Shown here: one piece after another, positions 268 to 22,170 of the stretch
Position numbering within the stretch: the first letter of the stretch is position 1
How the letters are laid out: every line of letters starts with the position of its first letter
DNA from: a virus
Taxonomy: Duplodnaviria; Heunggongvirae; Uroviricota; Caudoviricetes
Direction: 5' to 3' (one strand)
Virus record (IMG/VR): IMGVR_UViG_2740892282_000009
DNA: 22,170 nt
Made by a program: the position numbers and the translations under genes
Notes under the pieces: model-generated
Told to the model about the DNA's origin: nothing
What the model saw: the letters and a program-made list of their open reading frames with translations, nothing else
Database searches by the model: none

Positions 268-297
268 GCCTGTGTCCATATTACGTGGGTAGGATCA
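259..297. repeat. IS3 right terminal inverted repeat (about 39 bp)
   Basis: CTCGCTTAGGCCTGTGTCCATATTACGTGGGTAGGATCA ends with the TGATC-type terminus (as reverse complement) typical of IS3 ends. Exact IR length is recalled, not computed. Confidence 0.6.
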
Positions 298-2662
298 TAT
301 TGTCCGTGCCGAATACGTCAAAGAATCCCATCTTAACCTTATATTCACCATCAACGATGTTTGGTACTGAGTCGAATTCAGGTGCATAACTGGTAAACAA
401 TCGGCTGGTATTCCCGTTAACAATACTGATAACAGCACCAGCATAATCACGTTCAGTTGATTGTGTCCATGAAGCAAATAAATTACCAAAACCACCAGTG
501 AATGATACGCCTTGTACTAATCCACATTGTTTGTTTTCTACTGTAATTTTCACTTCCTGTGAATACGTTCCATCATTAAATCCCTGTGCGATAATACCAA
601 TAGTTGGTTTACGTACTTTTAAACGATTCATCGCAAGAGCGAAATTGAAACTATTGCTTTGCGTATAGAAAGTATCTACAAGGGTTGTACCGTTATAGAT
701 TTTAATGATGTAGTACTTGAAGTAATCAGAATACGAGCGACCATTAACGATTAAGTTCTTCTGTGAATCCCATGCAATATTAAAATCAGGTGCATCGGTG
801 ATTAACGCTGATTCAGTACGATTTGCCAGTACTACGCCAGTTACGGAAGGTAAAGCAAAGTTATAAGTCGGTACTATTCCGTTAAGGGTTACACGCTGCG
901 ATACCAAACCAAGATTGTTATACGCCTCTACCCCAAAGTCATAGCTTGCAGTGTCAGACAATCCAAACAGTTCATAAGTGGTTTTCTGTACGCCCGTTTG
1001 CCCCGCATATGTCCATGTACTGGTACTGTGAAGTTTGTAGTAAACATAATAGCCCCGTAGGTACGGATCTTCTGAAACCGTCCAGGTCAAATCAATGATA
1101 GAACCGCTGGTAGTGTTGCCCTTGCGTACTGCCTGTAGATTCGTTGGAGCCTTCACAGTAAGTTCAGGGAAGTTAATCACACCACCCGGCGACCATACGC
1201 CCGGATCTACACCGTCATACATCTGGTCAGGGGCTTCCACGCAGGTTAGCGTTACATAGCCTACGTTCTCTTGATCGGTGGCAATGTCCTTGTTCAGTAC
1301 TTTAAATTTACCTGAGATATTCAATTCGGCATTACTGACATTGATAGCATCCCATACCTTGAGATCCCATCCTTCGGATGTGGTAAAGCTGATAGTACGT
1401 AAAGCATACTTTGCCTTGAGTACATCAACGTTTGCCATCTTAGCGATGACATCAGGATCATATGACCAACTGTAATCACGACTAAGTGCGATTACCTGCC
1501 CGTCTTGCCGAACGGCTTCATCAACGGTTATATCTGAAGGTATGCGTACTACATCCGTGGTGTACATTGATTCAGGGTTAGTGAATTTGCAGTCAACCAC
1601 ATTGAAGTAGTCAGTACCGCCACTGGTTGAAATCTGTACAGCACCAACCATATTAGATTCATTAAATGACGCTACTGAAACTGTTTTACGGTCTGTCGTA
1701 ATACAAATCTGTCCGGCGTGAACATACATAATACCGCCAAATGATTGACAGATATTTTCTATGTTTTCTTTATAGCTTGATTGGTAACTGATAGCACCAT
1801 TGGCGTAGTACTCGAAAGCATCACAATAGGCTGCCGTTTCTTTGAAGATATCAAGATTAATTAATGCGGGATCAATACCCATCCCATACGTCGTATTTGT
1901 TAAGTAATCATAGATAATTGACGGTGGATTACTACTTGCTTTAATACTGCCATCCACTAAATCAAAAATACGTTGCCCTTTCATTTCAACGGTCAAAGCA
2001 AACTGATCATTAACGAGAATGTTATTTTCTAATGATTTCTGTGTTTTCTTGATAACCGTACTGATACTAACAATGCCTTTACCAAGAAATTTATTAGTCC
2101 ATTTTGGCCCTGCATATCCAGTAGCTAACGTTTTAGTACTGGTATAATCACCACCAAAGCGTACTTCTAGTTGTAGAAATTCCTGATACTTTTCCGCAAT
2201 ACTGGCTTTCGGTACTATGCCATCTTGTGTAATCGGTACGGCTAAAACTGGTTCGTTATCGATATAGATCTGTAGAATATTCTTTTCAGTACCCGCATAT
2301 GCTACAGCCTGTTCTGAAAAGAGATATTGAGAATCACTATTCGGTACGTTGTACCATGACACAATTGAACCTGTCAGTACGTATGAACCGCCTGATACCC
2401 CGTTTTTATGTGGCAACTCACCGCCATAGATAACAGGTAATCCCGTAGTTGGGGAAGTACTTCGGCTTAATGAGTCCGACACATCCCCATAACCGCTTAC
2501 GCCGATTTGCCCCAACATTGATGTAGCCACCAGTGAAGCAGCTCCCGCAGCAGCCCCCCAGCCAATCGCGGCTAATGCTGTACCGCCAGTAAAGTACACG
2601 GCTGCCGCGACAATTACCGCAGTTATGATAGCTCCAAAGAAGCCCCCTAAACTCTTACCCAT
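281..2662 (-). CDS. Lambda J-like central tail fibre / host-specificity protein, C-terminally truncated by the IS3 insertion
   Basis: 793-aa ORF with a J-like (phage-tail_3 type) region (...YGMGIDPALINLDIFKETAAYCD...) and a fibronectin-III-like segment (...TWTVSEDPYLRGYYVYYKL...). The N-terminus is Gly/Ala-rich and hydrophobic. The last codons (ILPT) and the stop are read from the IS3 inverted repeat. Start ATG at 2662 lies behind AAGGA. Confidence 0.7.
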   Translation of the reverse strand: MGKSLGGFFGAIITAVIVAAAVYFTGGTALAAIGWGAAAGAASLVATSMLGQIGVSGYGDVSDSLSRSTSPTTGLPVIYGGELPHKNGVSGGSYVLTGSIVSWYNVPNSDSQYLFSEQAVAYAGTEKNILQIYIDNEPVLAVPITQDGIVPKASIAEKYQEFLQLEVRFGGDYTSTKTLATGYAGPKWTNKFLGKGIVSISTVIKKTQKSLENNILVNDQFALTVEMKGQRIFDLVDGSIKASSNPPSIIYDYLTNTTYGMGIDPALINLDIFKETAAYCDAFEYYANGAISYQSSYKENIENICQSFGGIMYVHAGQICITTDRKTVSVASFNESNMVGAVQISTSGGTDYFNVVDCKFTNPESMYTTDVVRIPSDITVDEAVRQDGQVIALSRDYSWSYDPDVIAKMANVDVLKAKYALRTISFTTSEGWDLKVWDAINVSNAELNISGKFKVLNKDIATDQENVGYVTLTCVEAPDQMYDGVDPGVWSPGGVINFPELTVKAPTNLQAVRKGNTTSGSIIDLTWTVSEDPYLRGYYVYYKLHSTSTWTYAGQTGVQKTTYELFGLSDTASYDFGVEAYNNLGLVSQRVTLNGIVPTYNFALPSVTGVVLANRTESALITDAPDFNIAWDSQKNLIVNGRSYSDYFKYYIIKIYNGTTLVDTFYTQSNSFNFALAMNRLKVRKPTIGIIAQGFNDGTYSQEVKITVENKQCGLVQGVSFTGGFGNLFASWTQSTERDYAGAVISIVNGNTSRLFTSYAPEFDSVPNIVDGEYKVKMGFFDVFGTDNMILPT

Positions 2663-3056
2663 TGTGTTTCCTTACTCTATAAAATGTTCCATTCGTTGGT
2701 TTTGGATGAAGTTCAAAGCCATCATGGCTTTCATTCACTCCAAGTACCCGACCTGATACAACCACTGCCATAATTAAAGGGTTATCAGGATCTAGCCATA
2801 TATCACCGTCTATAACGACCTGTACGGGGTTACAGTACTGTTCAACTATCTCCCCTGTATGATTCCATCCTTCAGCCTTTAGACCTGCTATACCTTCCTG
2901 TACGCTTGTATATTCACGATTTGCTAATTGCGTAGTACCATTAATTAAATCGATAATACGTAATACAATAATATTGCAATCGTTATCTCCGAATTGATAC
3001 GGGTTATCAATGGCGTACTGAATGACATTCATAATTTCATTGTGTAGATTTTTCAT
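2655..3056 (-). CDS. Tail-tip associated protein (133 aa); possible gpK-like/NlpC-P60-like peptidase, speculative
   Basis: Sits immediately upstream of the J-like gene and overlaps its start by 8 nt. Contains a Cys (GDNDCNIIV) and downstream His residues; the call rests mainly on position. Confidence 0.35.
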   Translation of the reverse strand: MKNLHNEIMNVIQYAIDNPYQFGDNDCNIIVLRIIDLINGTTQLANREYTSVQEGIAGLKAEGWNHTGEIVEQYCNPVQVVIDGDIWLDPDNPLIMAVVVSGRVLGVNESHDGFELHPKPTNGTFYRVRKHNG

Positions 3057-3679
3057 TATTTGTACTTCCAGTTTTGATTTTGATTAACTTGCCCTAACAG
3101 ACTAAAGTACTCATCACCTTTGTAGTAAGATTGATATACTGAGTTAGCAGCAATTAAGGTCGGCTGTCGGTCTAGCTTTTTATATACACTGTTAACGTAT
3201 ATCGTCATTTCGTTAGTTTTTTGATTTGGGTCTGCTACTGCCTGTACGTAATCAATGAATCCTGAAAACATAAGCATTGAATCGATTACAGTACTGTCAT
3301 ATGGATTCAAGATTACTAATTTGATATTCATCTGAGCATCTTTAAGAAATCCACCTAATGCAAGTGCACGTACTGATTGATTCACATTACTGACTTTGAA
3401 GTTGATAGCATCATTCGTGATGCCCTTTTGTTCTGAATAGGAAGGAAGTGAACCACTGATAATATCGGGGAAACTAATATATTGATAACCATCTAAATTG
3501 ATATCTATAAGTGAGTCTGTCCAGTGAAAACCATTTGTGCCTTTTGGAAGTACATCAAAACAAGTTACCTGTACACCCAAGCTCATTACATCCATTAGTG
3601 TTAATCGTGTTTTCGTCGTACCTTTAACTAACTTCCAGTACTTCAATAGATTGGCATTAGTAAAAACTGCATCATTCAT
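3056..3679 (-). CDS. Tail-tip / baseplate-hub-like structural protein (207 aa)
   Basis: Translationally coupled within the tail-tip gene string; no recognisable motif; assigned by synteny. Confidence 0.35.
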   Translation of the reverse strand: MNDAVFTNANLLKYWKLVKGTTKTRLTLMDVMSLGVQVTCFDVLPKGTNGFHWTDSLIDINLDGYQYISFPDIISGSLPSYSEQKGITNDAINFKVSNVNQSVRALALGGFLKDAQMNIKLVILNPYDSTVIDSMLMFSGFIDYVQAVADPNQKTNEMTIYVNSVYKKLDRQPTLIAANSVYQSYYKGDEYFSLLGQVNQNQNWKYK

Positions 3680-4236
3680 TATGTAATATTCTCCGTTGCC
3701 TTAAATGTCATATTCATTATGTTACCGACTGGCAATGTATAGTCATTATCAGGGTCCAGTACTGCTTCGATCATCAGATTGTTATATTTAATAATCTCGC
3801 TTGCCTGTACTGTATTTTGTAAGACAGGAAAAATAGTAATAGAAGTACTGGTACGTTCTACAATGCGATATATTTTATTGTGGTTAGTAAATTGAATCCA
3901 TTCACCTATCGCTAGAGAATTAGTACTGGTGTTGATTACCCTATTGCCTTTGTTAACAAGTGCAGTACTGGTTAACGATCCCGTTTGTGTGCCTCTGTAG
4001 GTACTCAACAATCCAAGAGAAAAAGTAAAGGGCTTACCCTGTGAGTACTGAGCAAGGAAGTTTTGAACCTCTCCAATACTGGCAGTATTGAAACTTAACT
4101 GAAACTGAATCTCATAGTATTGAATACCTGTACTTCTCATGATACGTTGCCCTGTCCATGTCTGATTTGAATAGACAGGTTCAGTACTTTTAATCTGGAA
4201 GTTTGTTATTTTTATTTGATTTGAAAAAGATGCCAT
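3679..4236 (-). CDS. Distal tail / tail-tip structural protein (185 aa)
   Basis: First gene of the tail-tip string; ATG at 4236 preceded by GAGGT; beta-rich composition; assigned by synteny. Confidence 0.35.
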   Translation of the reverse strand: MASFSNQIKITNFQIKSTEPVYSNQTWTGQRIMRSTGIQYYEIQFQLSFNTASIGEVQNFLAQYSQGKPFTFSLGLLSTYRGTQTGSLTSTALVNKGNRVINTSTNSLAIGEWIQFTNHNKIYRIVERTSTSITIFPVLQNTVQASEIIKYNNLMIEAVLDPDNDYTLPVGNIMNMTFKATENIT

Positions 4237-4271
4237 TGTAACCTCAACAATCCTTGTTTCGAGTATTTATT

Positions 4272-4892
4272 ATGATTGACTTCTTAAACCACATATTGCC
4301 TATATTATCTGCTATTGCATTCCCTATAGTTGTTGTAGTAGTAACTCTTTATATAGTCTACAGAAGCGGAAGTACATCCATCATTGCTAATAAGATATGG
4401 GGGATATTCATTGGTGAGAAAAATTTCTTCAATGAAGAATTAGCATTAAAAGAAAAGGTTGAACATGATGTTGCTAAATTCAACTTTAAAGTAAATCTGA
4501 AAACCAGGAATCTCACTCAAATTGAACAATTTTATAAATTTCTGGAAAAATTCGATCTGGATATAGATAACTTCAAAGGACTTCGTGACTGCTACTTGCC
4601 CTCATTGCAGAAGGTCAAAAAAACATCTAAAAGTGAAATGTTTAATATTGGCCTGGTTGTCTTGTTAATAGGCGGTTTTTTGTTACCTATCTTCATTGGC
4701 GTGTTTATATTTAGAGACATTTCTACTTTCGACGGGGGGAAATTAGCAAATCTATTCTTTTATACGTTTTTAATTTCTGCCAGTACAGTTTTAAGTTTTA
4801 GTCAGTTACTTAGAAAGATTAAGTCAATCAGAACCCGTAAATTGATCTATAAAAAGAAATGCGAATATCTTGCAAACAGAAAGCCCATGTAG
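4272..4892 (+). CDS. Integral membrane protein (about 206 aa), opposite-strand moron inside the tail module
   Basis: The ORF track gives 4254-4892 with a TTG start; the first ATG is at 4272. Hydrophobic N-terminal helix (ILPILSAIAFPIVVVVVTLYIVY) and a second hydrophobic pair (IGLVVLLIGGFLLPIFIGVFIF). Very AT-rich, without the GTAC excess of the neighbours. Confidence 0.55.
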   Translation: MIDFLNHILPILSAIAFPIVVVVVTLYIVYRSGSTSIIANKIWGIFIGEKNFFNEELALKEKVEHDVAKFNFKVNLKTRNLTQIEQFYKFLEKFDLDIDNFKGLRDCYLPSLQKVKKTSKSEMFNIGLVVLLIGGFLLPIFIGVFIFRDISTFDGGKLANLFFYTFLISASTVLSFSQLLRKIKSIRTRKLIYKKKCEYLANRKPM

Positions 4893-4900
4893 GGCTTTCT
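4878..4900. terminator. Hairpin between convergent genes (candidate bidirectional terminator)
   Basis: AGAAAGCCC-atgta-GGGCTTTCT: perfect 9-bp stem with 5-nt loop, overlapping the stop codons of the plus-strand moron (4890-4892) and the minus-strand gene (4900-4902). Confidence 0.5.
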
Positions 4901-6003
4901 TAAGAATTACGTCTCTGGCTGCTTCTTACTGCCTGTGTCACACTGTTGGCGTGCTTCTTCAACATTTCATTGAATTTCTTATCATCACCTGCAACGTCAC
5001 CCTGAATGATTAAGGGAGCGTTAACGGTGATGTCACCAGCAGTACTACCGCCTTTGTCCTGAGTATCGAGGAATTTAGTAAGTTTCTTGTTGGCTTCTGG
5101 CTGTACGACACGCTCACCGGCTTTCAGTACGAATGATTTATTATCATAACTAGATGGTAATTCATCTACGCCGCCGTGGAACTGCCCCGCATCAGCACCT
5201 TTTGCAGTACTGATAATGCTCAATCCAAGAGAGGCTACCTGTGCATAGTTCGCAAGGTTTTGAGGCCACGGCGTAGCAAGTGCCTGTGCAAGTGCGGATT
5301 GAATGCTTAGTACTGTCTGAGCTATCGTGATCCCACGTGAAACCATGAATGCCGCTTCGGCTGCACCAGACGATTCCCCAAATGCGGCCACCATCGCCCC
5401 ACTAAGGTTTTGTGCAGTATCTGAGAAGATTGTGAGTTGTTGCTGTGCATTCTGGTTACTGATATCAATGGCCTGAGCATTGTACTTTGCTGTTATACCA
5501 GTAGTGTTAGCACCTACGCCGTAATCCCCCTGATAGACAGGAAGAGGTGCAGCCATTGTCATTACACGGGCAACTACATCAGCAGGTGTAAATGAATAGG
5601 ATTTAGTAACTACCTGATCCTTATCCCCGGATAATTGAGTACCCGTAACGTAACCATTGACGATGGCATAAGTGATCTGACTTTCTTCTAAATCTAATTG
5701 ATACTGAATAATGACCTGAAATACAGTTTGTGATTCAGCTATTTCATCTAAGAATTGGTGCGTAGGATCATCAGGTAAGTATGCAACCACAATATCAAAT
5801 GGTTCTACTGATTTATCGGATAGTAGTACTGTCTTGTACTCATTATCATAGGTTTCAAAATTATTTGTTTCTGACTGGATGGTTAGAGCAGGAAATTCAG
5901 TTACATTATTAATAGTAACATTGCCTATGCCCTGTGGTGAACGGTTTCCAGTGTCCGTATTATATTGTAAAGTTAATCCCTTACCTGAAAAAATGTCGGC
6001 CAT
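4900..6003 (-). CDS. Tail protein with tape-measure-like Ala/Gly/Gln-rich central region (367 aa)
   Basis: Lies between the small head-tail genes and the tail-tip genes. Central low-complexity helical segment (AQQQLTIFSDTAQNLSGAMVAAFGESSGAAEAAF...) as seen in tape-measure or ejection proteins. The N-terminal 150 aa could be a tube-like domain. Confidence 0.35.
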   Translation of the reverse strand: MADIFSGKGLTLQYNTDTGNRSPQGIGNVTINNVTEFPALTIQSETNNFETYDNEYKTVLLSDKSVEPFDIVVAYLPDDPTHQFLDEIAESQTVFQVIIQYQLDLEESQITYAIVNGYVTGTQLSGDKDQVVTKSYSFTPADVVARVMTMAAPLPVYQGDYGVGANTTGITAKYNAQAIDISNQNAQQQLTIFSDTAQNLSGAMVAAFGESSGAAEAAFMVSRGITIAQTVLSIQSALAQALATPWPQNLANYAQVASLGLSIISTAKGADAGQFHGGVDELPSSYDNKSFVLKAGERVVQPEANKKLTKFLDTQDKGGSTAGDITVNAPLIIQGDVAGDDKKFNEMLKKHANSVTQAVRSSQRRNS

Positions 6004-6020
6004 TTTATATCCTTATAGCG

Positions 6021-6413
6021 TTATCTTGTTTTCTCCGTAACTTGAATATTTATCGTGAATGATAAAGAAACCGAGCCAGTTATAGGGTCTGTTACGATAT
6101 CGGATTGTTCATATGAGTAAGAGAGAATGATTAAATCAGCATCCTTGAAAGCACGTGCTTTCTCATTATCAAAAGTACTGATAATCTGATCATAAGTAAT
6201 TGATGGTGCAGTGTTGCCTGATTCTGGTTTTGGACTAATCAAGTACTGAATAGCAAAGTTACCTGCTTGTCTCTGCCCTCCAAAAGAAATTGAAGACAAT
6301 GAGTAATCAAATGCTATCTGTTCAAATACATCGGCATCACGTGATATTGTTAGATTCTTAGTTGCGTTGATTAGCTGTTTCATTGTCTGGCGTACTTTCT
6401 GTACTAACATCAT
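6021..6413 (-). CDS. Small virion protein (131 aa), candidate tail tube or head-tail joining protein
   Basis: The ORF track extends to 6491, but the start is probably ATG 6413-6411: it directly follows the upstream stop (TAA 6417-6415) and has GAGGA about 9 nt upstream. Beta-rich; assigned by synteny. Confidence 0.4.
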   Translation of the reverse strand: MMLVQKVRQTMKQLINATKNLTISRDADVFEQIAFDYSLSSISFGGQRQAGNFAIQYLISPKPESGNTAPSITYDQIISTFDNEKARAFKDADLIILSYSYEQSDIVTDPITGSVSLSFTINIQVTEKTR

Positions 6414-6414
6414 A

Positions 6415-6738
6415 TTAGTAGTCCTCTGCAAATGAAGCACCAGCAGAAGTACGAAAGTAGCAATTAACCATACCTGACCGATCATCTTCAATATTATAAA
6501 TTGTTTGGTTTACACCATCGATGATCAGTACTGTACCGATAGCTATATCAGCATTAACTAAATCATCCTTTCTCATTGTTACGTATGTTTCTGTACTTTC
6601 GATAAATCCACCTGCCGCTTCAATAGAAACGGGAAGTACTTCTGCAATTCCAGTAAAAGTACTTCCCGTAGAAGTTTGGATTAATTGACCGAAAGCATTT
6701 AGAAACGTATCTTGTTGACCGTTAGAAAATGCTCTCAT
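6415..6738 (-). CDS. Small virion protein (107 aa), candidate head-tail connector/adaptor
   Basis: Immediately downstream of the capsid ORF and tightly packed with neighbours; assigned by synteny. Confidence 0.35.
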   Translation of the reverse strand: MRAFSNGQQDTFLNAFGQLIQTSTGSTFTGIAEVLPVSIEAAGGFIESTETYVTMRKDDLVNADIAIGTVLIIDGVNQTIYNIEDDRSGMVNCYFRTSAGASFAEDY

Positions 6739-6743
6739 AGTTA

Positions 6744-10565
<3,822 letters not shown>

Positions 10566-10568
10566 TTA

Positions 10569-12942
<2,374 letters not shown>

Positions 12943-12956
12943 TTATTGAGATCACT

Positions 12957-13520
12957 ATGTCAGACCGCAACAATGATTTTTCTTTGCTGGTAAAGTTACT
13001 GAATAGCTTCCTAAAGAATGAAGATATAAAGAGGCGTCTGTATTCCTTCGTCAGTAATGAAACTAATGATTGGGAAAAATGGCTACAAATTGAATTTGAG
13101 CACTTCCTTAACAAAAAAAGAAAATATGAAGTTAAACGTGAAGTTACAGCTTTTCTTGACCCTAATAATTTCCCTGCAAGCAAGCTCTCAAAAATCGATA
13201 TAATAATGAGAGAAAAAGATACCCTTTTTGAAGACTATATCTTTATTGAGCTGAAATGTACTAAGCGTTCATCTGCCTTAAAAAGAGGATTGCAAGCAGA
13301 CCATTTGAAACTCAACTCTATACAAGAATGTAAGTATCCGATGCGAAATTCTTTCTGTGTTGGTTTTCATTTATATTGCTCATCATCTGTAGTTGAAGAA
13401 ATGGACAAGTATGTAACCGATACCCTTAAAGGATCTCATGCAGTATTCAAATTATGCGAATGTCCGACAAACCGTCATTGCGATTGTGCGTTAAATGAAA
13501 TAGGTGTTGTACTTTGCTAA
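12957..13520 (+). CDS. Small PD-(D/E)xK-like nuclease-fold protein with Cys-rich C-terminus (187 aa)
   Basis: Motif ...EKWLQIEFEH ... KIDIIMRE ... (16 aa) ... YIFIELKCTKR fits a D ... E-x-K nuclease core. C-terminus CECPTNRHCDC. Divergent from the TerS gene (44-bp gap). AT-rich, low GTAC count. Confidence 0.45.
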   Translation: MSDRNNDFSLLVKLLNSFLKNEDIKRRLYSFVSNETNDWEKWLQIEFEHFLNKKRKYEVKREVTAFLDPNNFPASKLSKIDIIMREKDTLFEDYIFIELKCTKRSSALKRGLQADHLKLNSIQECKYPMRNSFCVGFHLYCSSSVVEEMDKYVTDTLKGSHAVFKLCECPTNRHCDCALNEIGVVLC

Positions 13521-13699
13521 GTGCGGTGCGGGAAGCTATCTAAACTTCACACATAACTTAAAGAATCCGGTGCCGAAAACTCGCGTTCTAAGCTGGGCTG
13601 CCGGAGTACCTTAATTAGTAATTTAACTTAATTAGCTTGCTTAAAAATACTTACATTCTATTTTACATTAGCATTATTACAATGTTATATTAATAGCAC

Positions 13700-14854
13700 A
13701 TGCACATTGTAGCTCATAAAGGAATGACCAAATTGGTAAAGAATGTATATTTCGATGAATCAGGATTCACTGGTAATAACTTACTTTCAAAAGATCAGCC
13801 TTTTTTTAGTTACGCAGCAGTCGTGACTGATGATGAGGAAAGTAAACAGTTTGTTGATTATATAATAAACAAGTACTCGATCGCAGCCGAAGAGCTAAAA
13901 GGTAGCACTCTCGTAAATAGCAAGAGATTTCAACCAGCCGTAGATGAAATACTTAATCATTTCCGTGGTCGTATGCGTGTGGTTGTAAACGAAAAAAAAT
14001 ATGCCCTCTCAGGAAAATTCTTCGAATATATTTTTGAGCCAGTATTAGCAGCTAAAAGCTCAATTTTTTACAACCTTAAATTTCACCTATTCATCTCAAA
14101 TATAATGTATTTTTCTTTAATAGCTAAGGATGAATATTCAGAACTATTACATTCGCGATTTGAAGATTTTTCACGAGGTAAAATATTGGTTAATAGTTTT
14201 ATCGAACCAGTTGTTGGTTCTAAAAATTCTGAAATTATGATGGACATTCATGATTTCGCCAAGAATAACATCTCTATAATTGAAGAAGAATATGAAGGCC
14301 TTGAGGGTACTGGGATTGATAAGTGGTTATTAGATTTGACAACGACTTCTCTTTATAATCTCCTGTGCGATATGAGTAGTAAGTTTGGTACATTGAGAGC
14401 TATATGCGACAGCTCAAAACCATTAATTACTCATCAGGACTCATTCAATGAGATGATAGGCAATGATGAGATTGTGTTCGAGACTTTTCATGATAAAAAA
14501 ATCCCGATCACATTTAAGCTATCTGAGCCAATGATTCTTTCTGATTCTAAAGTCACGCATGGTATACAAATTGCGGATGTGGTAGCTGCGGCTAGCATTT
14601 ATGTCCTTAACAAGAAAAAATCGAAAGAAAAATATCATTCTAAATGGCTAAATCATTTTGAAGATGAGATTTTTTATTGGCAGTGCTGTGTTGTTCCCAC
14701 ACCAGAAAACCTTGACCCTAAAAATGTTAACAACCATTTAAATAGATATATTTTGCAAGAAATTGCAGAGCGAAGCAGAAACTCAACTCCTGTTTTAGAT
14801 GATATTGAGAAGGATATAATAAGAATTTCCAGAACATTAGCCATGCTACGTTGA
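13700..14854 (+). CDS. DUF3800-like protein (384-aa ORF; probable start at ATG 13724, 376 aa)
   Basis: N-terminal VYFDESGFTG matches the DESG-type signature I associate with DUF3800 (function unknown). AAAGGA immediately precedes ATG 13724. Followed by a strong hairpin terminator. Confidence 0.5.
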   Translation: MHIVAHKGMTKLVKNVYFDESGFTGNNLLSKDQPFFSYAAVVTDDEESKQFVDYIINKYSIAAEELKGSTLVNSKRFQPAVDEILNHFRGRMRVVVNEKKYALSGKFFEYIFEPVLAAKSSIFYNLKFHLFISNIMYFSLIAKDEYSELLHSRFEDFSRGKILVNSFIEPVVGSKNSEIMMDIHDFAKNNISIIEEEYEGLEGTGIDKWLLDLTTTSLYNLLCDMSSKFGTLRAICDSSKPLITHQDSFNEMIGNDEIVFETFHDKKIPITFKLSEPMILSDSKVTHGIQIADVVAAASIYVLNKKKSKEKYHSKWLNHFEDEIFYWQCCVVPTPENLDPKNVNNHLNRYILQEIAERSRNSTPVLDDIEKDIIRISRTLAMLR

Positions 14855-14864
14855 AATATATATT

Positions 14865-14894
14865 CTCATGCTGTTTTATCAATAACAGCATGAG
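14865..14894. terminator. Rho-independent terminator candidate (perfect 11-bp stem, 8-nt loop)
   Basis: CTCATGCTGTT-ttatcaat-AACAGCATGAG, followed by an A/T-rich tract, 11 bp after the stop at 14852-14854. Confidence 0.55.
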
Positions 14895-14936
14895 GGTATT
14901 ATATATTATTTAATTTTTCATCATGCCACATACACT

Positions 14937-15024
14937 TAATAATTTAATAATTTAATAATTTAATAATTTAATAATTTAATAATTTAATAATTTAATAATT
15001 TAATAATTTAATAATTTAATAATT
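14937..15024. repeat. Perfect tandem repeat (TAATAATT) x 11
   Basis: Eleven identical head-to-tail 8-bp units, 88 bp, no interruptions; sits between convergent gene ends (14854 and 15047). Confidence 0.95.
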
Positions 15025-15046
15025 CTATCTCTTTGATTTTTGTTTA

Positions 15047-15319
15047 TTATCTATATTGATGCATTTTTTTAATTCTTTCCTCTCGTATATGGCATGTAGT
15101 ACTGCCATTGTCCACCTGATAGATCGGATTGTAGGTGCGGCCACAATCACTCTGGAACTGAGGAAGGTAGTACTTCACCCCGTTACGTGTACCTGTATCA
15201 AACAGTACTATTATAGCTTTGTTATCAACGTTACCGACCAAGGCTTTATCCATGAATGAATGATGTACGCTGCCGCAGCCTGTGAGCAGTACTACCAACA
15301 TGACGATTAGTATTTTCAT
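15047..15319 (-). CDS. Lipoprotein (about 90 aa)
   Basis: The ORF track starts at 15355, but the likely start is ATG 15319 (AGGGA 8-9 nt upstream), giving the signal peptide MKILIVMLVVLLTGC with a lipobox (LTGC). Confidence 0.6.
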   Translation of the reverse strand: MKILIVMLVVLLTGCGSVHHSFMDKALVGNVDNKAIIVLFDTGTRNGVKYYLPQFQSDCGRTYNPIYQVDNGSTTCHIREERIKKMHQYR

Positions 15320-15329
15320 TGTTATATCC

Positions 15330-15839
15330 CTATAGAAGTTGTTCGCATTGTTCAAAGCGGATTGGCCTGTACTCTCCCTGTACTGCCCATATGCCCGACT
15401 CTCGTAAAATCCTGTGATTTCGGTTGCTGCTGACTTGTACGATCACCTTGTCGCAGTACTGCATGATGTTCTTAATGAGTACCGGGAAGATCAACCGCTC
15501 TATGTATTCCTCAGTGAACCGTCTATTTAGTCGAACTAAGTCGTAACCGTCCGTTAGCAGCGGTTCAGCAGCCATGTACCGTATGAATGGTAGATCTTCA
15601 TAGCGTGTACCTGTGCCAGTACTGAGCACGCACAACACCCCCTTTTCTTTGAACCATGCGGCTTTGCCCTGAATCATTCTTAACTGGTTCTGATAGACCA
15701 CGTGACGAATGTATTCACTTTCCTTTCCTGCCCCCATCAGTACCCGGCAACCGTTTATCAGTACACGGGTTTCCAGCTCTACGCCGAGTAACATACCGTC
15801 CAAAGACGTAATAGGAACTGCCCAATGTTCGAGTTTCAT
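15330..15839 (-). CDS. Short EAL-domain-like protein (169 aa), probably degenerate or truncated
   Basis: N-terminal WAVPITSLDGMLLGVELETRV resembles the start of EAL domains (YQPI...G.EALLRW); C-terminal CDKVIVQ...AVQGEYRPIRFEQ resembles the VAEGVE...QGY...P end. About 80 aa shorter than a canonical EAL domain. Region is higher in GC. Confidence 0.4.
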   Translation of the reverse strand: MKLEHWAVPITSLDGMLLGVELETRVLINGCRVLMGAGKESEYIRHVVYQNQLRMIQGKAAWFKEKGVLCVLSTGTGTRYEDLPFIRYMAAEPLLTDGYDLVRLNRRFTEEYIERLIFPVLIKNIMQYCDKVIVQVSSNRNHRILRESGIWAVQGEYRPIRFEQCEQLL

Positions 15840-16020
15840 GTTGATCTCTCAGTTGTCATAACTGATTGATAATTGATCTGCCTTGACTATCAGTTAACTC
15901 ATTATCGATCGGTATAGCCTTTCCTACCATTTTTAGTGGTTAGTGATTTTCACGGCTGGATCTGTGCGAAATGTGATGCAACACTGTATAAATAACCAGT
16001 ATTCATGTGGAGGGCATATC

Positions 16021-16332
16021 ATGGGCAAGAATGGTTTTGATCCGGCAATCAAACACGGGGTTCAGCAGTTTGAGCATTTAGGCCAATGGGCTAAGGTCTG
16101 CTATTGGGGATACAGTCTTGATGAGTTTTCATATGGGGATCGTGTTTTCTTCCAGAACCAGCAAGGTACATACTGGTTAGGCACGATTGAGCGTGATTGC
16201 TTCGTGTTCATACTGGAAACGCCGCTAAGTTCAGTACTGGAAGGCTTGCATTATCTGAGTACTGAGAATGCCGTCTATAAGCAGCATGAAGAAGATGGTT
16301 GGTTCTCTGGGCAGGGAGAATTACCGTTTTGA
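16021..16332 (+). CDS. Hypothetical protein (about 103 aa)
   Basis: The ORF track starts at 15943; ATG 16021 is preceded by GGAGGG. No recognisable motif. Confidence 0.35.
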   Translation: MGKNGFDPAIKHGVQQFEHLGQWAKVCYWGYSLDEFSYGDRVFFQNQQGTYWLGTIERDCFVFILETPLSSVLEGLHYLSTENAVYKQHEEDGWFSGQGELPF

Positions 16333-16432
16333 TAGCACTTCCACCAATCGCCCAAACAAACCTACCCAAATGCGAAAGGTGGAAGTACTACAATTATATC
16401 TTTTTGCATCAAAAATATAACCAAAACTTTGT

Positions 16433-17224
16433 TCATTTATCCCAAAGCGTCATAAGTTTACTCTTAATCTCATCCGTTATTGCTGAGTGATTCGACTTAT
16501 AGATGATTTTTAGTGCTTCAACGTTGTCGCCATTCTTGAATACTCTTCGCATTGAAGATGCCTTTGTTCTTGCAGTACTTTCCTTCCATTCTGGATGGTC
16601 AGTTACCATCTTTTCAACAAGATCAGTTGTGTTCATACCACTTTCAACATACTGATAGTACTCAATAAATGTCTGCATTCCTATTGTCTGTAGATCCCGG
16701 ATAGTGTTTGAATCTGGCTTCACCGTGATCTCTTCCTTTGAACGTTCAGTGTCTGGATCAATAAATTCAATGATGTCTGTTACACGTGGATCGTTAAGTA
16801 ATAAATTGCTGATTCTTAAAGTGTAACCATTCTGGTGCTCATTATAAAAACCATATTCCTTCACTAATTCATGTGGTATGGATACAGCATAACGAATTGA
16901 GAAATCATGGTTATATATTACGGCAATGAGCTCATCGAATTGGTTCAGATCATAATTTCTGATAATCCCAAGAATTAATGATTTGTTTTTTAAATTATTC
17001 TTACGAGACTTAATCTGAATTTTTCGATCATCAATCGTTGTAGCGTCATACCCTTTAGTACTAGGTGCAGCCAGTACCATTTGCATCTTATCCGCAACCA
17101 GCCATTCAGTGTACTCACTGATAGGATTGTTTCTGGTTCTGATAACCTCTCGTCGTTCTAACTCATCAAGCGTCAACTGATTCAGTTGCATCAATTCGAC
17201 GTTACTCAATTGTGATAAATCCAT
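16433..17224 (-). CDS. Hypothetical protein (263 aa), translationally coupled partner of the HNH nuclease
   Basis: Its ATG (17224-17222) abuts the stop of the upstream gene (TAA 17227-17225). Possible degenerate nuclease-like segment (GYDATTIDDRKIQIKSRK); otherwise unrecognised. Confidence 0.4.
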   Translation of the reverse strand: MDLSQLSNVELMQLNQLTLDELERREVIRTRNNPISEYTEWLVADKMQMVLAAPSTKGYDATTIDDRKIQIKSRKNNLKNKSLILGIIRNYDLNQFDELIAVIYNHDFSIRYAVSIPHELVKEYGFYNEHQNGYTLRISNLLLNDPRVTDIIEFIDPDTERSKEEITVKPDSNTIRDLQTIGMQTFIEYYQYVESGMNTTDLVEKMVTDHPEWKESTARTKASSMRRVFKNGDNVEALKIIYKSNHSAITDEIKSKLMTLWDK

Positions 17225-17953
17225 TTACTCGCTCCAAAAGGTCATTTTCTCTTTCAAGTCTGCAATTGAAAGTACTTTGCTCCCACGATGTACCATTGCA
17301 TGGCAATTTGGACATAATGGGACCATATCTGTTACGGGGTTGACCACATAGTTTTCCCCAATCGTATGAAGCGGCTTGATGTGATGTACATGAATGAATC
17401 CACGGCCATGTGTACCATAGACCTTCTCAAAATCGAAACCACAGCATTTACAGGTAGTACCGTGATGTTGGATGCAGGCTTGTCTGGCCTTTGGATCGCG
17501 TTCGTAGTAGTTCACTGTTACTTGAGTCTTTGCACCTTCAACAAAACTCTCTCCTGAAGGAATTTCATCAGGGAATGGATTAGGTAAGAAGTCTGCATAC
17601 CAAACAACGCCTTCTTTACGCAGATATCGCTTGTTTAATTTACGCTCAAAATCCTTGATAACTGCAATTTCAGGGTTATCCGGGTGTTCTGCGAAAACCA
17701 TATTGAAGGTGTAAAGTTCGTAGCCTTCATGGACTAACCTGACGTGTTCCAGTGCCTGGGTGTATCCCAGTTGTTTTTTGTTGTTTGAGTTGTACTCCCA
17801 ACGCTCTCGAAGAATGACTGACCGCTCTTGTTCACTCTCAACATCCCATGACCCAAAGATGACCATCTTCTTTTCATGGTTAACAAATGACCAACTCCAC
17901 GTCCAGTTACTGCAAGTAGCTCCGTGCGACTGGATGAATTGCTTCCGGTTCAT
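17225..17953 (-). CDS. McrA-like HNH nuclease with an unassigned N-terminal domain (242 aa)
   Basis: C-terminal HNH signature YERDPKARQACIQHHGTTCKCCGFDF...GFIHVHHIKPL...MVPLCPNCHAMVH, compared with E. coli McrA from memory. The Trp-rich N-terminal 150 aa (SNWTWSWSFVNHEKKMVIFGSWD...) may be a modified-base reader (EVE/SRA-like); this is a guess. Confidence 0.65.
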   Translation of the reverse strand: MNRKQFIQSHGATCSNWTWSWSFVNHEKKMVIFGSWDVESEQERSVILRERWEYNSNNKKQLGYTQALEHVRLVHEGYELYTFNMVFAEHPDNPEIAVIKDFERKLNKRYLRKEGVVWYADFLPNPFPDEIPSGESFVEGAKTQVTVNYYERDPKARQACIQHHGTTCKCCGFDFEKVYGTHGRGFIHVHHIKPLHTIGENYVVNPVTDMVPLCPNCHAMVHRGSKVLSIADLKEKMTFWSE

Positions 17954-18156
17954 TTCTAATCCTTTGTTGTATGATGCTGATATGTAATGTCTTATGTTAT
18001 CGGGATCTCAGGAGAGAGAGCAATTTTTTCATATAATTTGTGATCATTATCAACACCATAATTATAACTAACCTTAAGTTAAATTTAAGTAGCACTGATG
18101 GGTACAGAAAATTAATATTTACGATTCACTTTCCCAAATGTTAACATCCATCATTA
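17954..18156. promoter_or_regulatory. AT-rich divergent intergenic region (likely promoters for the HNH operon and the membrane-protein gene)
   Basis: 203-bp AT-rich spacer between divergently oriented genes; no -10/-35 pair confidently assigned. Confidence 0.3.
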
Positions 18157-18849
18157 TTGGTTGAGTTTCGAGTACTTCATGTGAATATTAAAATAACAAA
18201 TAGAATACTTGCATCCACAGTTATCGTACTTCTATGGGTAGCAATATTGGTGTTGGTTAAAGTACTTTTTCATGGAGGTAGCCAATTGGAATGGGGATCT
18301 ATTAGTGATTGGGTTAGTTCTATCGCCAATCTAATTATGGCAGGGGCAGCCCTATATGCAGCATGGAACGCTAAAAATTGGTTTCAAACTAAAATAAAGG
18401 AAAATGCATTAAATCAAGTTACTAAGTTCTGGACTAATTGCGATCTTTTTTCGTTAGAAATGTTAAAAACATATGAAAATGTACGCAGTCTCAACAATAC
18501 AGATCCTGATTTTGAGCCAAAAGACTTCGCTTACTTAGTGAGGACAGAAAAAGAAGTTATCGATCAACTACAAATAAAGCTAACTTCATTAAAAAATGAG
18601 TTGCAATCGCTTACTTTTTGGAAGGTATCACCAAAGGATGCAACCATTTTTAAAAATTATTTTTTCAGCAATCAAATGGCTCTGAGCACTTTAAAGGAAG
18701 CAATAAATTTTGATATAAATGATATATCTGAGCGATATCATTACAACATGAACTATGGAAAAGTATTAGTTGACACTTTTAAAGGTTTAATTAACACGCA
18801 TGAAACACTTAAAAAGGACATGAATAATCTTTTCCATTTCTCTAATTAG
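18157..18849 (+). CDS. Membrane protein with hydrophobic N-terminal segments and a soluble, coiled-coil-like C-terminal domain
   Basis: The ORF begins with TTG at 18157 and has no ATG before the second hydrophobic segment, so the start is uncertain (GTG 18178 possible). Hydrophobic segments ILASTVIVLLWVAILVLVKVLF and VSSIANLIMAGAALYAAW. AT-rich. Confidence 0.4.
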   Translation: MVEFRVLHVNIKITNRILASTVIVLLWVAILVLVKVLFHGGSQLEWGSISDWVSSIANLIMAGAALYAAWNAKNWFQTKIKENALNQVTKFWTNCDLFSLEMLKTYENVRSLNNTDPDFEPKDFAYLVRTEKEVIDQLQIKLTSLKNELQSLTFWKVSPKDATIFKNYFFSNQMALSTLKEAINFDINDISERYHYNMNYGKVLVDTFKGLINTHETLKKDMNNLFHFSN

Positions 18850-18867
18850 AGTTCACATCGTTCAACA

Positions 18868-18890
18868 AGCGGTGGACAATCTTCACCGCT
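18868..18890. terminator. Hairpin downstream of the membrane-protein gene (terminator candidate)
   Basis: AGCGGTG-gacaatctt-CACCGCT: 7-bp stem with 9-nt loop, followed by an A/T-rich tract. Confidence 0.4.
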
Positions 18891-18989
18891 ATAATTAATA
18901 CTTCAATATACGTATTTACAATGGCTTCATTAAAGTACTCATCTTTTGGTTCTCTTATGGTTATGTATTAAAAGTATCTTATCCCATCA

Positions 18990-19869
18990 CTATTTAACAC
19001 TACCATCATTCATAACCCATTTTTTCTTGCCCGACTGAAAATCCTCGACTATAGCTTTAATTTGTTCTGAAAAATCTATAATGGATGTACTAGCTATAGG
19101 TTCTCGATAAACGTAATCACAATGGTATTCTGTAATTTTAAATCGCACCTTACTATCTAAACCCTCGAGCCAACCATCATTGAATTTTTCAAAATATTCA
19201 CCAGGGCCATATTTCAGTTCTTTACTCAAACTGAAAATCCTGTTTGGTATATCATGTATAGTATATTTCACATTGTTTTGAACATCATTGATGAAGACCT
19301 CATTGTTCATCTTTCCTTTAAATATATTTTGGAAATCATCTTCTTTATAGTCGCTCTGAGAGTTAAACCATGCACCATCAACACGCACATTAAAATTTTT
19401 AATTTCTGGTAATGTCCGTGCAATTATATTCATATGAATTGTTTTTAACAATGGCTCACCATCTTCAGTAATCCAATCGGACTCTTGCTGACCACGTATA
19501 ACAAGCAACTGTATATTGTGCTGTTCAGCTTTTATCTTTGCACCACTCTGATATCCTGTCCGTGTAGCATAAATTAGCTTAAGACCTGGGATGTCTGAAG
19601 TTTTACCAATATATGCATCAATTTTTTTCAATAGATACTGGTGTTGAATAATCTTTACACTCTATCACTGATCTATAGATATTACCCCCTAACTCAAATT
19701 CCCAATAGATATCAAATTCCCTTTCAATACCTGAACGATCTTTAATCTTTTTATTCTTCTCAATGTTAATATTATTGAGGCTTGGTATATTCTCAGCTGC
19801 AATAAGTGACCGCTGGATATCCCGTACTAGTTCTTCATATTCCTTGCCTGAATTGTACATATGAATCAA
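18990..19869 (-). pseudogene. Mrr-like (PD-(D/E)xK, restriction-endonuclease-type) nuclease gene split by a frameshift in a 7-nt homopolymer
   Basis: The upstream ORF (19618-19869) carries EFDIYWEF...VIECKDY; the downstream ORF (18990-19631) continues with KLIYATRTGYQSGA, matching the Mrr catalytic-domain pattern as I recall it. The two frames overlap in the T7 run at 19622-19628 (A7 on the coding strand); the downstream frame has only a TTG start. Removing one nucleotide gives a continuous reading frame of about 295 aa. Confidence 0.55.
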
Positions 19870-20541
19870 TATCTCTAAACAGAATGTATTGCTAATAGTA
19901 CTCCAAATGCCTGTAATTGTTCAAGTATCAGATAAGCAACCTTACAGCTTAGATAGAAAGCTAAGACTGCTTCTGTTGTTCAAATTAATATATCTACTTG
20001 CAAGGAACGATTATGTAAATCGTATGCAACAATCTGGGTTCGGTCGATCCACGGTTCGCGGTTGGGACTGCGTGGGCAACTCACTAATAATTTGATCAAT
20101 TACTTTGCCAGTACTTAGAAAGTAATTATGTGAGGCTTTAACAGCCGAACGCCCCGACAAGGGAGTTTACGACCACGTAGTTACTCACGAATACTTACCA
20201 AATCACTTTGAGTTCTTCTTTTGTCAGTACTGTTACTTGTCTGAGCGAAAGCGAGTAAATCCCTTAGTTCTTTTCGAGTACTAGCGAGAAAAAACGCAAG
20301 GTTCGGTTTAATTTGTTTTTCAGTGACTATACGACCGCAGGGAGTGTAGGCACTCAAAGACCGATTTGGACGTAGTACAAGAGGTCTTAATAATTTCTAA
20401 TTATGGTGTCGAAATTCTGGGCAACCCATATACAGTGTGTTTTAACTCATATTGATACTATATCTAGTGCAAGCAACACTAATCAACCCCATAAAAACCA
20501 CATTTAACCTTAATTACGACATTTGAACCGTTATTAAAACA

Positions 20542-21066
20542 CTACTTAGAATGTCTTAATTCGGGATAAATTGTAGCTATAACCTTTAGTAGGTCTGCCT
20601 TAGTACAGCCACCATCTAAAGCCATACGTAGTTGATATGCTTCTTCACCAGTTAAGTACTGTGCTCCCTCTGGTGTATCACTTCTTACCGGCTTACCACT
20701 ACTTAGAATCGCATTCAGGCCTTCACATATAGCAATCGTGACCATCTTATAATCTCGTACTGAGGAATCGCCGTACTCATTGAGTGTAAAGGCATCAAAG
20801 TACTCGATATTGTTCTTTATCGCTTCATCTGTGATGTATCGAGTCGATGTAACCAGAAGTAGCATATTCTTGTTTGAGAAAGTCTTACGTTTCTTGTTCT
20901 TTTCAAAGTAACTTTTAACAGAGTTTGATATTACTCTACGTGCTTCATCTGTAAGTTGATTGAGATGGCGTACTCCCCTTAGATGATCTTGTAATTCTGC
21001 ATTATCGTGTTTTTTTGGTTTTCGTCCACGTTTCTTTATTTCATGCGGCTCTTTCTTTTTTGTCAT
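20542..21066 (-). CDS. Hypothetical protein with basic N-terminus (174 aa)
   Basis: Lys/Arg-rich N-terminus (MTKKKEPHEIKKRGRKPKK) suggests nucleic-acid binding. Directly downstream of the HNH homing-endonuclease-like gene; backbone composition (GTAC-rich). Confidence 0.4.
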   Translation of the reverse strand: MTKKKEPHEIKKRGRKPKKHDNAELQDHLRGVRHLNQLTDEARRVISNSVKSYFEKNKKRKTFSNKNMLLLVTSTRYITDEAIKNNIEYFDAFTLNEYGDSSVRDYKMVTIAICEGLNAILSSGKPVRSDTPEGAQYLTGEEAYQLRMALDGGCTKADLLKVIATIYPELRHSK

Positions 21067-21131
21067 AATAAATACCCCTATGATAGATGTTAATATTGGC
21101 CTGTAGTATTTCCAGTACTCAGGCCATTTCG

Positions 21132-21632
21132 TTATTTTGATTTTTGTAATAGTACCGCACTAAGTTTTGGAAATGCTTTATACTGCTGCGATATTTTATA
21201 GATATATGATTTACGCCCAACAACATAAGCAGCATGAGCTTCTTCTATCGTTGGGTATGTCCCAAACTTATGTACTTTCTTATCAAATGTTGCTTGTGCT
21301 TGATAGCCCTTATGATTAACGACAACACCGGTTGATAATGATGTTGGTACTTTACGGAACAATTGATTTACTTCTCTCGGTACAAAGATGCAGTTACTTG
21401 GGCTGTACTCATTACCTCCTAATATGTCTTTATCTAAATGCCAACCATCAACAACATTTTCAACATACCAATAATAAAAATCACTAAACCGATACCAGTC
21501 ATCGCAGATGGTAACAGTACTGTAATTGATGTTATTACGTACTCTTGAGTGAAAATTATTCCATACTCGTAGTGCTTGTTTTACATGTGGTAATTCCTGA
21601 CCCTTTAGGTCATTTCTTTTTTCCTTTTTCAT
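21132..21632 (-). CDS. HNH homing-endonuclease-like protein (HNH_3-type motif plus AP2-like DNA-binding region, 166 aa)
   Basis: WHLDKDILGGNEYSPSNCIFVPREVN fits the H-N-N pattern of phage HNH_3 endonucleases; the C-terminal GYQAQATFDKKVHKFGTYPTIEEAHAAY is AP2-like. ATG at 21632 with AAGGA 7 nt upstream. Confidence 0.6.
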   Translation of the reverse strand: MKKEKRNDLKGQELPHVKQALRVWNNFHSRVRNNINYSTVTICDDWYRFSDFYYWYVENVVDGWHLDKDILGGNEYSPSNCIFVPREVNQLFRKVPTSLSTGVVVNHKGYQAQATFDKKVHKFGTYPTIEEAHAAYVVGRKSYIYKISQQYKAFPKLSAVLLQKSK

Positions 21633-21650
21633 ATTTCATCCTTGAAACTA

Positions 21651-21671
21651 AGTACTTCATCCTGAAGTACT
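21651..21671. promoter_or_regulatory. Perfect inverted repeat AGTACTTCA-tcc-TGAAGTACT (operator or hairpin candidate)
   Basis: 9-bp arms with a 3-bp spacer, about 20 bp upstream of the HNH_3 start and 35 bp downstream of the small upstream ORF. The 3-nt loop is tight for an RNA hairpin, which favours a protein-binding site. Confidence 0.4.
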
Positions 21672-21705
21672 GTTAGTACCTTTCTAAAGTGAAAGTACCA
21701 AACCC

Positions 21706-21858
21706 TTACTTACTATCTAAAATCCCATATTGCTGTATCAGATACTGAATGGCTGAACTCATCGTTGTAGCCTTACCACACACTATAAGTGATTTTAGTA
21801 TTTCTTCTTGTGTAGGACTTAATCTCACCCCAACACTAATAGTTTTCTTTTCTTTCAT
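21706..21858 (-). CDS. Small ORF (50 aa), possible ribbon-helix-helix-type DNA-binding protein
   Basis: Not in the supplied ORF track (below its length cutoff). Hand translation: MKEKKTISVGVRLSPTQEEILKSLIVCGKATTMSSAIQYLIQQYGILDSK; AAGGA 6 nt upstream of the ATG. The pattern (basic N-terminus, VRLSPxxEExL..., ...SSAIQYL) resembles small RHH regulators or antitoxins. Confidence 0.35.
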   Translation of the reverse strand: MKEKKTISVGVRLSPTQEEILKSLIVCGKATTMSSAIQYLIQQYGILDSK

Positions 21859-22170
21859 AACATTCCTTTGTTTAACATTTTCCATTTTTTCTCAACGCAA
21901 AAAGATCCCCATGTTGGGGATTACTTTTTGATGTAGAATTATAATTATCACGTTGAGGTAGTGATCACCATAATATGGATTATACCATGTTATTTTTTAT
22001 CGTTCCAAAAACTTGATAACCATTTTATTTATGGTTGGAATTTTCAAAGGTAGTGCTAATACTGTTAGTAACATAAAAAAGATGCACAGTACTATCCAAC
22101 ATGGAAATAGTACGAACATATAGATTGCCGTAGCAATGATTTCAAAGATTATTTTGTATATCCAATTCAT

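Follow-up and report, generated by a model that had tools for sequence, protein, structure and literature searches.

An exchangeable, opposite-strand cargo gene for a short-form DUF6216 predicted membrane protein in the tail operon of an enterobacterial prophage lineage

What is a gene that reads backwards doing in the middle of a string of phage tail genes? The question is raised by IMG/VR virus record IMGVR_UViG_2740892282_000009 (Caudoviricetes), whose 22,170 nucleotides are the window analyzed here. Throughout positions 281-12912 the long open reading frames (ORFs) lie on the minus strand, as the first-pass annotation of this DNA had stated for the virion genes, with the sole exception of one plus-strand ORF, which we call the cargo ORF. 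It is flanked on the left by a distal tail gene (3679-4236) and on the right by a gene (4900-6003) that resembles tape-measure PHROGs in its C-terminal half. The position assigned to it earlier, between a tape-measure-like gene and the tail-tip genes, is right, although “tape-measure-like” does not describe the right-hand neighbor, which is a 367-amino-acid (aa) fusion remnant of a deletion. Our analysis suggests that the cargo gene is a moron of an ordinary kind, with good support and a function that is plausible.

4272 to 4892, plus strand: cargo ORF, 206 aa plus stop, encoding a short-form DUF6216 predicted inner-membrane protein

An alternative TTG start at 4254, a possible choice of gene callers, would give a protein of 212 aa; the N-termini of aligned homologs favor ATG 4272 and thus 206 aa. 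The cargo ORF is a real gene under purifying selection, because its product matches Pfam DUF6216 and its ratio of nonsynonymous to synonymous substitution rates (dN/dS) is about 0.07. In pairs with unsaturated dS the ratio was 0.067 to 0.075, as low as in the neighboring tail genes. A pseudogene or chance ORF at 4272-4892 was rejected on the same two grounds.

How constant is the gene in its place? Slot counts are defined by 50 related IMG/VR viral contigs that were retrieved via the distal tail protein. The tape-measure/distal-tail junction is empty in 36 of them, with a gap of 56 to 226 bp (mostly 56 to 139 bp). The DUF6216 cargo gene is found in four loci (L016, L027, L046, and L065) and is absent from the other 46; an unrelated ORF of ~191 aa with one transmembrane (TM) segment is present in seven, with an apparently decayed copy in L019, and a DUF726 protein of ~260 aa with a GHSLG motif occupies the slot in two. 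Cargo of every kind is oriented opposite to the tail genes. Wherever the distal tail protein shares at least 78% identity with that of the window (13 loci), the slot is filled. Profile comparison of the cargo protein with the 191-aa alternative found no relationship.

About 3421 to 4000 of L017, L018, L021 to L024, and L026, opposite to the tail genes: ~191-aa cargo with one TM segment, no Pfam or PADLOC match
About 3141 to 3956 of L020 and L025, opposite to the tail genes: ~260-aa DUF726 cargo with a GHSLG serine-hydrolase motif

The cargo is also exchanged between alleles. Compared with locus L010, both flanks of the window show 95 to 100% DNA identity, whereas the ORF reaches only 61 to 78% (68% at the aa level, with dS saturated), and the boundaries of divergence coincide with the ends of the cargo ORF. 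In the comparison with L008, identity is higher for the cargo protein (92%) than for the distal tail protein (81%). Since the two patterns are opposite, allele replacement by recombination, and not fast local evolution, accounts for them. Homologs in the same slot are 92% (L008), 68% (L010), 59% (Kosakonia, L007/L013), 40% (L068), and ~29% (L082) identical to the cargo protein, and the association of the gene with the slot is, judging from these alignments, old. Being absent from most related phages, replaced in others by unrelated genes, and swapped between near-identical backbones, the cargo gene is, on the evidence of these comparisons, a dispensable, exchangeable accessory gene of the moron type, in agreement with its first-pass description as an opposite-strand membrane-protein moron in the tail string. 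No homolog proved to be a conserved structural or assembly gene, and such a role was rejected on account of the dispensability of the gene in the lineage and its opposite strand.

Which signals delimit the slot, and how might the gene be expressed from it? The following features lie at its two ends.

4878 to 4900, no strand assigned: hairpin with a perfect 9-bp stem and the 5-nt loop ATGTA, common to both convergent genes
4237 to 4271, no strand assigned: divergent spacer of 35 bp, from the distal-tail ATG to the cargo ATG
4263 to 4270, minus strand: ATAAATAC motif, directly before the cargo ATG, at the left edge of the cargo slot
4216 to 4244, plus strand: candidate sigma-70-like promoter, TTGATT-17-TAACCT, within the first distal-tail codons; weak

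The hairpin, reported earlier as a perfect 9-bp stem that overlaps both convergent stops, was confirmed at 4878-4900. Its arms are AGAAAGCCC (4878-4886) and GGGCTTTCT (4892-4900). The cargo stop TAG (4890-4892) falls partly in the loop and partly in the stem, the minus-strand gene's stop (4900-4902) shares the final base of the stem, and the 5' arm doubles as codons for the C-terminal R-K-P of the cargo protein. The minimum free energy is -15.9 and -16.2 kcal/mol for the two strands (z of -3.9 and -3.7), which at most 1 in 200 shuffled sequences equals. The same stem, GAAAGCCC/GGGCTTTC, recurs with four different loops across DUF6216-bearing loci (L027, L046, and L007/L013 compared with the window) and is also found directly past the tape-measure stop in L021 and L026, which carry the 191-aa cargo. 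Both kinds of cargo ORF, DUF6216 and 191-aa, run into the hairpin and end in ...KP or ...NP. In empty junctions, hairpins of other sequence take this position, immediately past the tape-measure stop, and the order there is tape-measure stop, GC-rich hairpin with T-run, ATAAATAC, Shine-Dalgarno sequence, and distal-tail ATG.

Because it accompanies the 191-aa cargo as well and has counterparts in empty junctions, the hairpin is attributed to the backbone and not to the cargo: these alignments identify it as the tape-measure terminator, borrowed in antisense by the cargo gene, whose 3' end it would serve as. The earlier description of it as the gene's “own bidirectional terminator” is thus not upheld. 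A consensus terminator scan found no match at the cargo 3' end, as the plus strand has no T-run past the stem. In terms of the moron concept of Juhala and Hendrix as summarized in PMC3594210, the locus has the extra DNA that is absent from related genomes and lacks a terminator of its own.

At the opposite end, the spacer contains the distal-tail Shine-Dalgarno sequence GAGGT (the reverse complement of 4241-4245) in addition to ATAAATAC; it is conserved in L001, L008, and L010 and largely so in L007/L013. The motif (T)ATAAATAC is kept ~25 to 35 nt upstream of the distal-tail start in nearly all related phages (L016-L064), whether they carry cargo or none, and is retained even within the 191-aa cargo ORF, in which it reads as R-I-Y-I-K. 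The motif looks like a -10 or T4-late-type element. A general late-promoter role was rejected, since ATAAATAC occurs a single time on the minus strand of the window; for the same reason we regard it as specific to the tape-measure/distal-tail junction. As the hairpin abuts the tape-measure stop and ATAAATAC precedes the cargo ATG, the cargo lies exactly between two backbone signals. The slot would accordingly span the interval between the tape-measure terminator and the distal-tail translation start region, with the cargo read backwards in it. The candidate promoter TTGATT-17-TAACCT has a position weight matrix score of 8.8, no better than that of the corresponding stretch in 36 cargo-less loci (8.3 ± 1.4). 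The sole plus-strand match of a consensus promoter scan is TCAACA-18-TATTAT (4244-4273), with its -10 element over the cargo ATG.

Does composition mark the gene as foreign? With a GC content of 0.324, compared with 0.351 to 0.433 for the neighboring genes, the ORF is indeed more AT-rich than its surroundings, but “far more,” as had been claimed, is an overstatement, because its GC content at third codon positions (GC3) of 0.353 matches the virion-gene backbone (0.22 to 0.37). Among virion genes, only the J-like (0.372) and fusion (0.356) genes have a higher GC3. The low GC content of the ORF originates at the first two codon positions and reflects a hydrophobic protein rich in Ile, Phe, Lys, and Asn, and there is no foreign codon signature; with GC3 equal to that of the backbone, the compositional argument is weak. 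The reported absence of the backbone's GTAC excess was borne out. The window contains 212 GTAC sites versus 76 expected (a 2.8-fold excess), and the virion genes have 11.6 per kb; the cargo ORF has 2 versus 7.2 expected at backbone density (Poisson P = 0.025). The excess is missing from the plus-strand accessory genes 4272-4892, 12957-13520, and 13700-14854 and also from 18990-19631. The AGTACT context accounts for 76 of the 212 sites in the window, in which GCGC occurs twice versus 28.6 expected and CTAG at 0.2 of expectation.

What kind of protein does the gene encode? Its product matches Pfam DUF6216 (PF19723) above threshold (E = 5.5e-22, 78.7 bits, gathering cutoff 27.3), with the match limited to profile positions 8-141 of 270, so that the full-length architecture is not reached. 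A precomputed PF19723 match is present in all eight close homologs. As the profile match is partial and an insert of ~85 aa is missing in all ~200-aa phage forms, we assign the protein to a short-form DUF6216 subfamily. An exhaustive profile search of 1.84 billion representatives gave 99 relatives, of which a handful are short forms of ~200 aa and the majority long forms of 270 to 300 aa. The 206-aa sequence is contained in the 212-aa protein P0001 (100% identity, 100% query cover), which is carried by 31 contigs; P0107 (206 aa, E. coli-named, same 90% cluster) is carried by 104. Identical and related proteins from E. coli, other Enterobacteriaceae, Scandinavium goeteborgense, and Kosakonia cowanii are labeled “DUF6216 family protein” at NCBI. 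The gene was not found in 5,426 complete E. coli RefSeq genomes, and 50,697 GenBank phage records gave no match to positions 3000-6500 (megablast) or to the cargo protein (tblastn). Scans of viral contigs with the proteins P0011 and P0014 returned zero loci.

As first proposed, this is a small multi-helix membrane protein: hydropathy reveals three hydrophobic helices, TM1 (8-30), TM2 (126-148), and TM3 (161-178). Between and beyond them lie a K/R-rich segment of ~95 aa (31-125), a TM2-TM3 loop of 12 residues, and a C-terminal tail with 11 K/R among 28 residues. Hydropathy and the positive-inside rule predict an N-out/C-in topology with the 31-125 domain and the C-terminal tail in the cytoplasm, which leaves a predicted periplasmic exposure of <20 residues (about 7 + 12). 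The AlphaFold2 model is all-helical, with a small helical cytoplasmic domain and a predicted local distance difference test score (pLDDT) of 74; within that domain D66 and N71 are invariant in the alignment, and G48 and F70 nearly so. Foldseek of the model against BFVD gave nothing below E = 0.4, and a profile search of PDB sequences with the cargo protein found no match.

Where are the long forms found? A genome scan with five long-form sequences yielded ten loci (L069-L078) in marine Oceanospirillales-type gammaproteobacteria. In L073 and L075 the long-form gene is single-gene cargo at an element's edge, with a tyrosine integrase before it and type IV secretion genes (VirB5-like, TrbL/VirB6, and NikA-like) after it. 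In L069, L072, and L074, with a remnant in L078, it abuts the TniQ-TniQ-TniB-transposase module of a Tn7-like element. Across the ten loci, no gene recurs as a conserved partner. Long and short forms share the order TM1, cytoplasmic domain, TM2, TM3, and basic tail, the motifs RSGS, NK/RxW, GxK, and DxxKFN, and an occurrence as mobile-element cargo. They differ in the ~85-aa insert between TM2 and TM3 of the long form, which has two conserved cysteines and is periplasmic by topology, where the cargo protein has its 12-residue loop, and in location, as the ten retrieved long-form loci are on integrative elements or Tn7-like transposons and none is in a phage tail operon. Judged by this distribution, the DUF6216 family as a whole looks like mobile-element cargo. 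Exclusion and defense genes typically sit at such integrase-side and Tn7-like element sites.

What, then, might the protein do? It probably protects its host from incoming phages, and we tentatively favor superinfection exclusion at the inner membrane, with somewhat less than even confidence, because the three-TM topology and the backwards, convergent placement mirror those of P22 sieA. Once made from the prophage, the cargo protein would lodge in the inner membrane and keep related long-tailed phages from finishing the entry of their DNA. The tape-measure protein is thought to form the DNA conduit; interference, intramembrane or from the cytoplasmic face, could be directed at the incoming tape-measure/tail-tip conduit or at a host factor that the conduit needs. 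P22 SieA is a precedent with the P22 ejection proteins as its target, and HK97 gp15 is one with HK97 as its target. Recent work has placed a membrane-bound defense nuclease at the tape-measure entry site (PMC13190303).

Several points weigh against superinfection exclusion. No convincing promoter that would drive expression of the cargo gene in a lysogen was found; a search of the 5' portion of the distal-tail gene for a cargo-specific antisense promoter gave the same picture whether or not a locus carries cargo. The tiny periplasmic exposure means that any tail contact would have to occur within or below the membrane, a difficulty for simple blocking. Alleles only 68% identical stand beside near-identical tape-measure C-termini, with no sign of allele-target covariation; SieA types <30% identical still share specificity (PMC10883804). 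The cargo protein has no PHROG, NCBIfam, or PADLOC (PADLOC-DB 2.0) match, fold searches returned generic helical hairpins only, and the sole mention of DUF6216 in the library of papers searched is an unrelated wastewater-community study. By hhalign it has no homology to P22 SieA (probability 0.4%, E = 0.15) or to HK97 gp15 (probability 1.5%). A point in favor is that the cargo gene is intact although the prophage has lost 5.2 kb of tail genes and its J gene is cut short, but this may mean no more than that the decay is recent.

The same cargo status and mobile-element distribution would also suit abortive infection or another post-entry defense, in which detection of infection by the membrane protein would lead to death or arrest of the cell, e.g., by membrane depolarization. 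A single-gene membrane protein whose conserved ~95-aa cytoplasmic domain could sense a phage product is compatible with this, and minimal periplasmic exposure suits intracellular sensing better than tail contact. We nevertheless consider it rather unlikely: no PADLOC model matches, there is no recognizable effector or pore-forming domain, fold searches were uninformative, and the placement by the injection-related tape-measure gene parallels that of the entry blockers sieA and gp15. PADLOC-DB 2.0 models gave no match for three long-form DUF6216 proteins or for both alternative cargo proteins either. Still less weight falls on lysogenic conversion or a host-physiological role with no link to phage defense, as a transporter or envelope-stress modulator, and on the exclusion of other elements such as conjugative DNA. 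The long-form relatives are found on type IV secretion integrative elements and Tn7-like transposons, not on phages only, and conjugative elements encode small inner-membrane proteins for entry exclusion; however, all short forms found belong to this phage lineage and occupy the tape-measure-side slot, and a Pfam search of the cargo protein revealed no enzyme or transporter domain.

A membrane function in the lytic cycle (holin, antiholin, lysis or injection helper) or a functionless selfish passenger is very unlikely. Three TM segments and a very basic C-terminal tail are holin-like, the lysozyme gene of intact relatives is on the plus strand as well, and a lysogen-type promoter was not found. 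Yet the cargo gene is missing from 46 of the 50 related loci that have the same virion genes, lies ~6 kb from the lysozyme gene, and encodes 206 aa with a 95-aa soluble domain, atypical for a holin, while strong purifying selection across 29 to 92% identity argues against a functionless passenger. A holin was rejected on the grounds of location outside the lysis cassette, size, and dispensability.

If superinfection exclusion holds, it would be the first function for the DUF6216 domain and the short list of inner-membrane blockers of phage genome entry would gain a family that has no relationship to SieA, gp15, Imm, or Sim. How the tape measure crosses the inner membrane, and how the crossing is blocked, is still poorly understood, and a slot with three alternative cargo genes and natural allele swaps is a ready comparative system. 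The 191-aa protein and the DUF726 hydrolase are candidates for further prophage defense or exclusion functions. It is tempting, but doubtful, to go further and see in DUF6216 a widespread, hitherto unrecognized inner-membrane exclusion family carried by phages, integrative and conjugative elements, and Tn7-like transposons and in the slot a hotspot that swaps at least three unrelated anti-phage cargo genes; the periplasmic domain of the long form would then recognize the target, the short form of the phages would work purely in or beneath the membrane, and up to three new defense or exclusion families would emerge at once. DUF6216 was already catalogued, and prophage morons for inner-membrane proteins are well known; what our comparisons suggest as new is the short-form subfamily, the precisely delimited slot with its three cargoes, the exchange of cassettes, and the general connection of DUF6216 with mobile elements.

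What kind of genome carries the slot? The nearest isolated phage has only ~30% identity in the capsid and distal tail proteins, and the lineage is, by sequence comparison, one of uncultured temperate siphovirus-like prophages of Enterobacteriaceae. In the window, the minus-strand genes encode the small and large terminase subunits, portal, protease-capsid fusion, head-tail connector, tail-tip proteins, and J-like fiber. The two neighbors of the cargo gene are as follows.

3679 to 4236, minus strand: gene for the distal tail protein (Dit), phrog_1302 (E = 2.6e-14), Pfam DTP-pb9_B-dom (E = 7.7e-5)
4900 to 6003, minus strand: 367-aa in-frame fusion gene, remnant of a 5.2-kb deletion, junction at 5494-5496

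The intact order, taken from contigs that carry the identical protein, is portal, protease-capsid (608 aa), 107 aa, 129 aa, a 946-aa Peptidase_S74-domain protein, major tail (152 aa), 93 aa, 121 aa, tape measure (736 aa), the DUF6216 gene on the opposite strand, distal tail (185 aa), 207 aa, 133 aa (DUF6950), and a tail-tip protein of 1067 aa; the plus strand of intact relatives also carries the lysozyme gene, ~6 kb from the DUF6216 gene. In the window, the first ~170 codons of the 946-aa S74 gene are fused to the last ~198 of the 736-aa tape measure. By blastn against the intact relative L001, window positions 297-5496 correspond to L001 6044-11243 and 5494-9687 to L001 16446-20639, and the PHROG matches of the fusion split at residues 153 and 176, in agreement with it. 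The deletion removed most of the S74 gene, the major tail gene, the 93- and 121-aa genes, and the first two-thirds of the tape-measure gene, so that this E. coli prophage is defective and cannot make tails. The J-like gene is truncated as well (793 versus 1067 aa), as similarity to L001 begins at 297. Positions 1-296 are probably a fragment of an IS3-family insertion sequence (IS), to judge from the DNA: 1-280 carries a 91-aa ORF (4-279), thousands of E. coli records match parts of the window, and IS3-family transposases are annotated under some of these matches, those over 1-280 not having been mapped separately.

A more degraded copy, 99.8% identical and covering window positions 11309-22170 only, occurs in E. 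coli AREA_C483 (L079; NZ_CP123310, 2148598-2177557), between mipA and yeaG and adjoining a 644-aa serine recombinase. It contains many IS3 and IS5 elements and one group II intron and has lost the entire virion module, the DUF6216 gene included. Beyond the terminase genes, the accessory region of the window (12957-19631) holds several defense-like genes, among the following features.

13700 to 14854, plus strand: DUF3800 protein
16433 to 17224: match to PADLOC models of type II methyl-directed restriction enzymes (E = 1.3e-62)
17225 to 17953: HNH endonuclease with a weak type IV match, adjoining the 16433-17224 gene
18157 to 18849, plus strand: second membrane-protein ORF

How does the cargo gene compare with known exclusion systems? 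HK97 gp15, the first described moron and YebO-like, is a small inner-membrane protein whose gene, like the one described here, is a moron in the tail operon near the tape-measure gene; it blocks genome entry in a manner dependent on the tail region of the incoming phage (PMC3594210). It differs in size (62 aa), and its gene shares the strand of the tail genes and lies upstream of the tape measure. P22 SieA is a protein of the inner membrane (162 to 164 aa) with three predicted TM segments that blocks DNA injection via the ejection-protein conduit (PMC10883804). Its function is demonstrated, whereas we infer that of the cargo protein; its central loop has ~45 aa in place of ~95 aa with conserved motifs; its gene is annotated with its own promoter, but a search for one at the cargo gene found none; and P22 is a short-tailed phage with ejection proteins, unlike the long-tailed lineage of the window with its tape measure. 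The two proteins nevertheless agree in the layout of TM segment, hydrophilic loop, TM segment, short loop, TM segment, and tail, and both occur as highly divergent sequence types, as described for SieA in PMC10883804. Their genes share the same placement: in the P22 record sieA lies on the opposite strand, convergent with and 22 bp past the injection-protein gene 16, and the cargo gene likewise stands opposite to the virion genes, convergent after a DNA-conduit gene, here the tape measure, at a distance of 7 bp.

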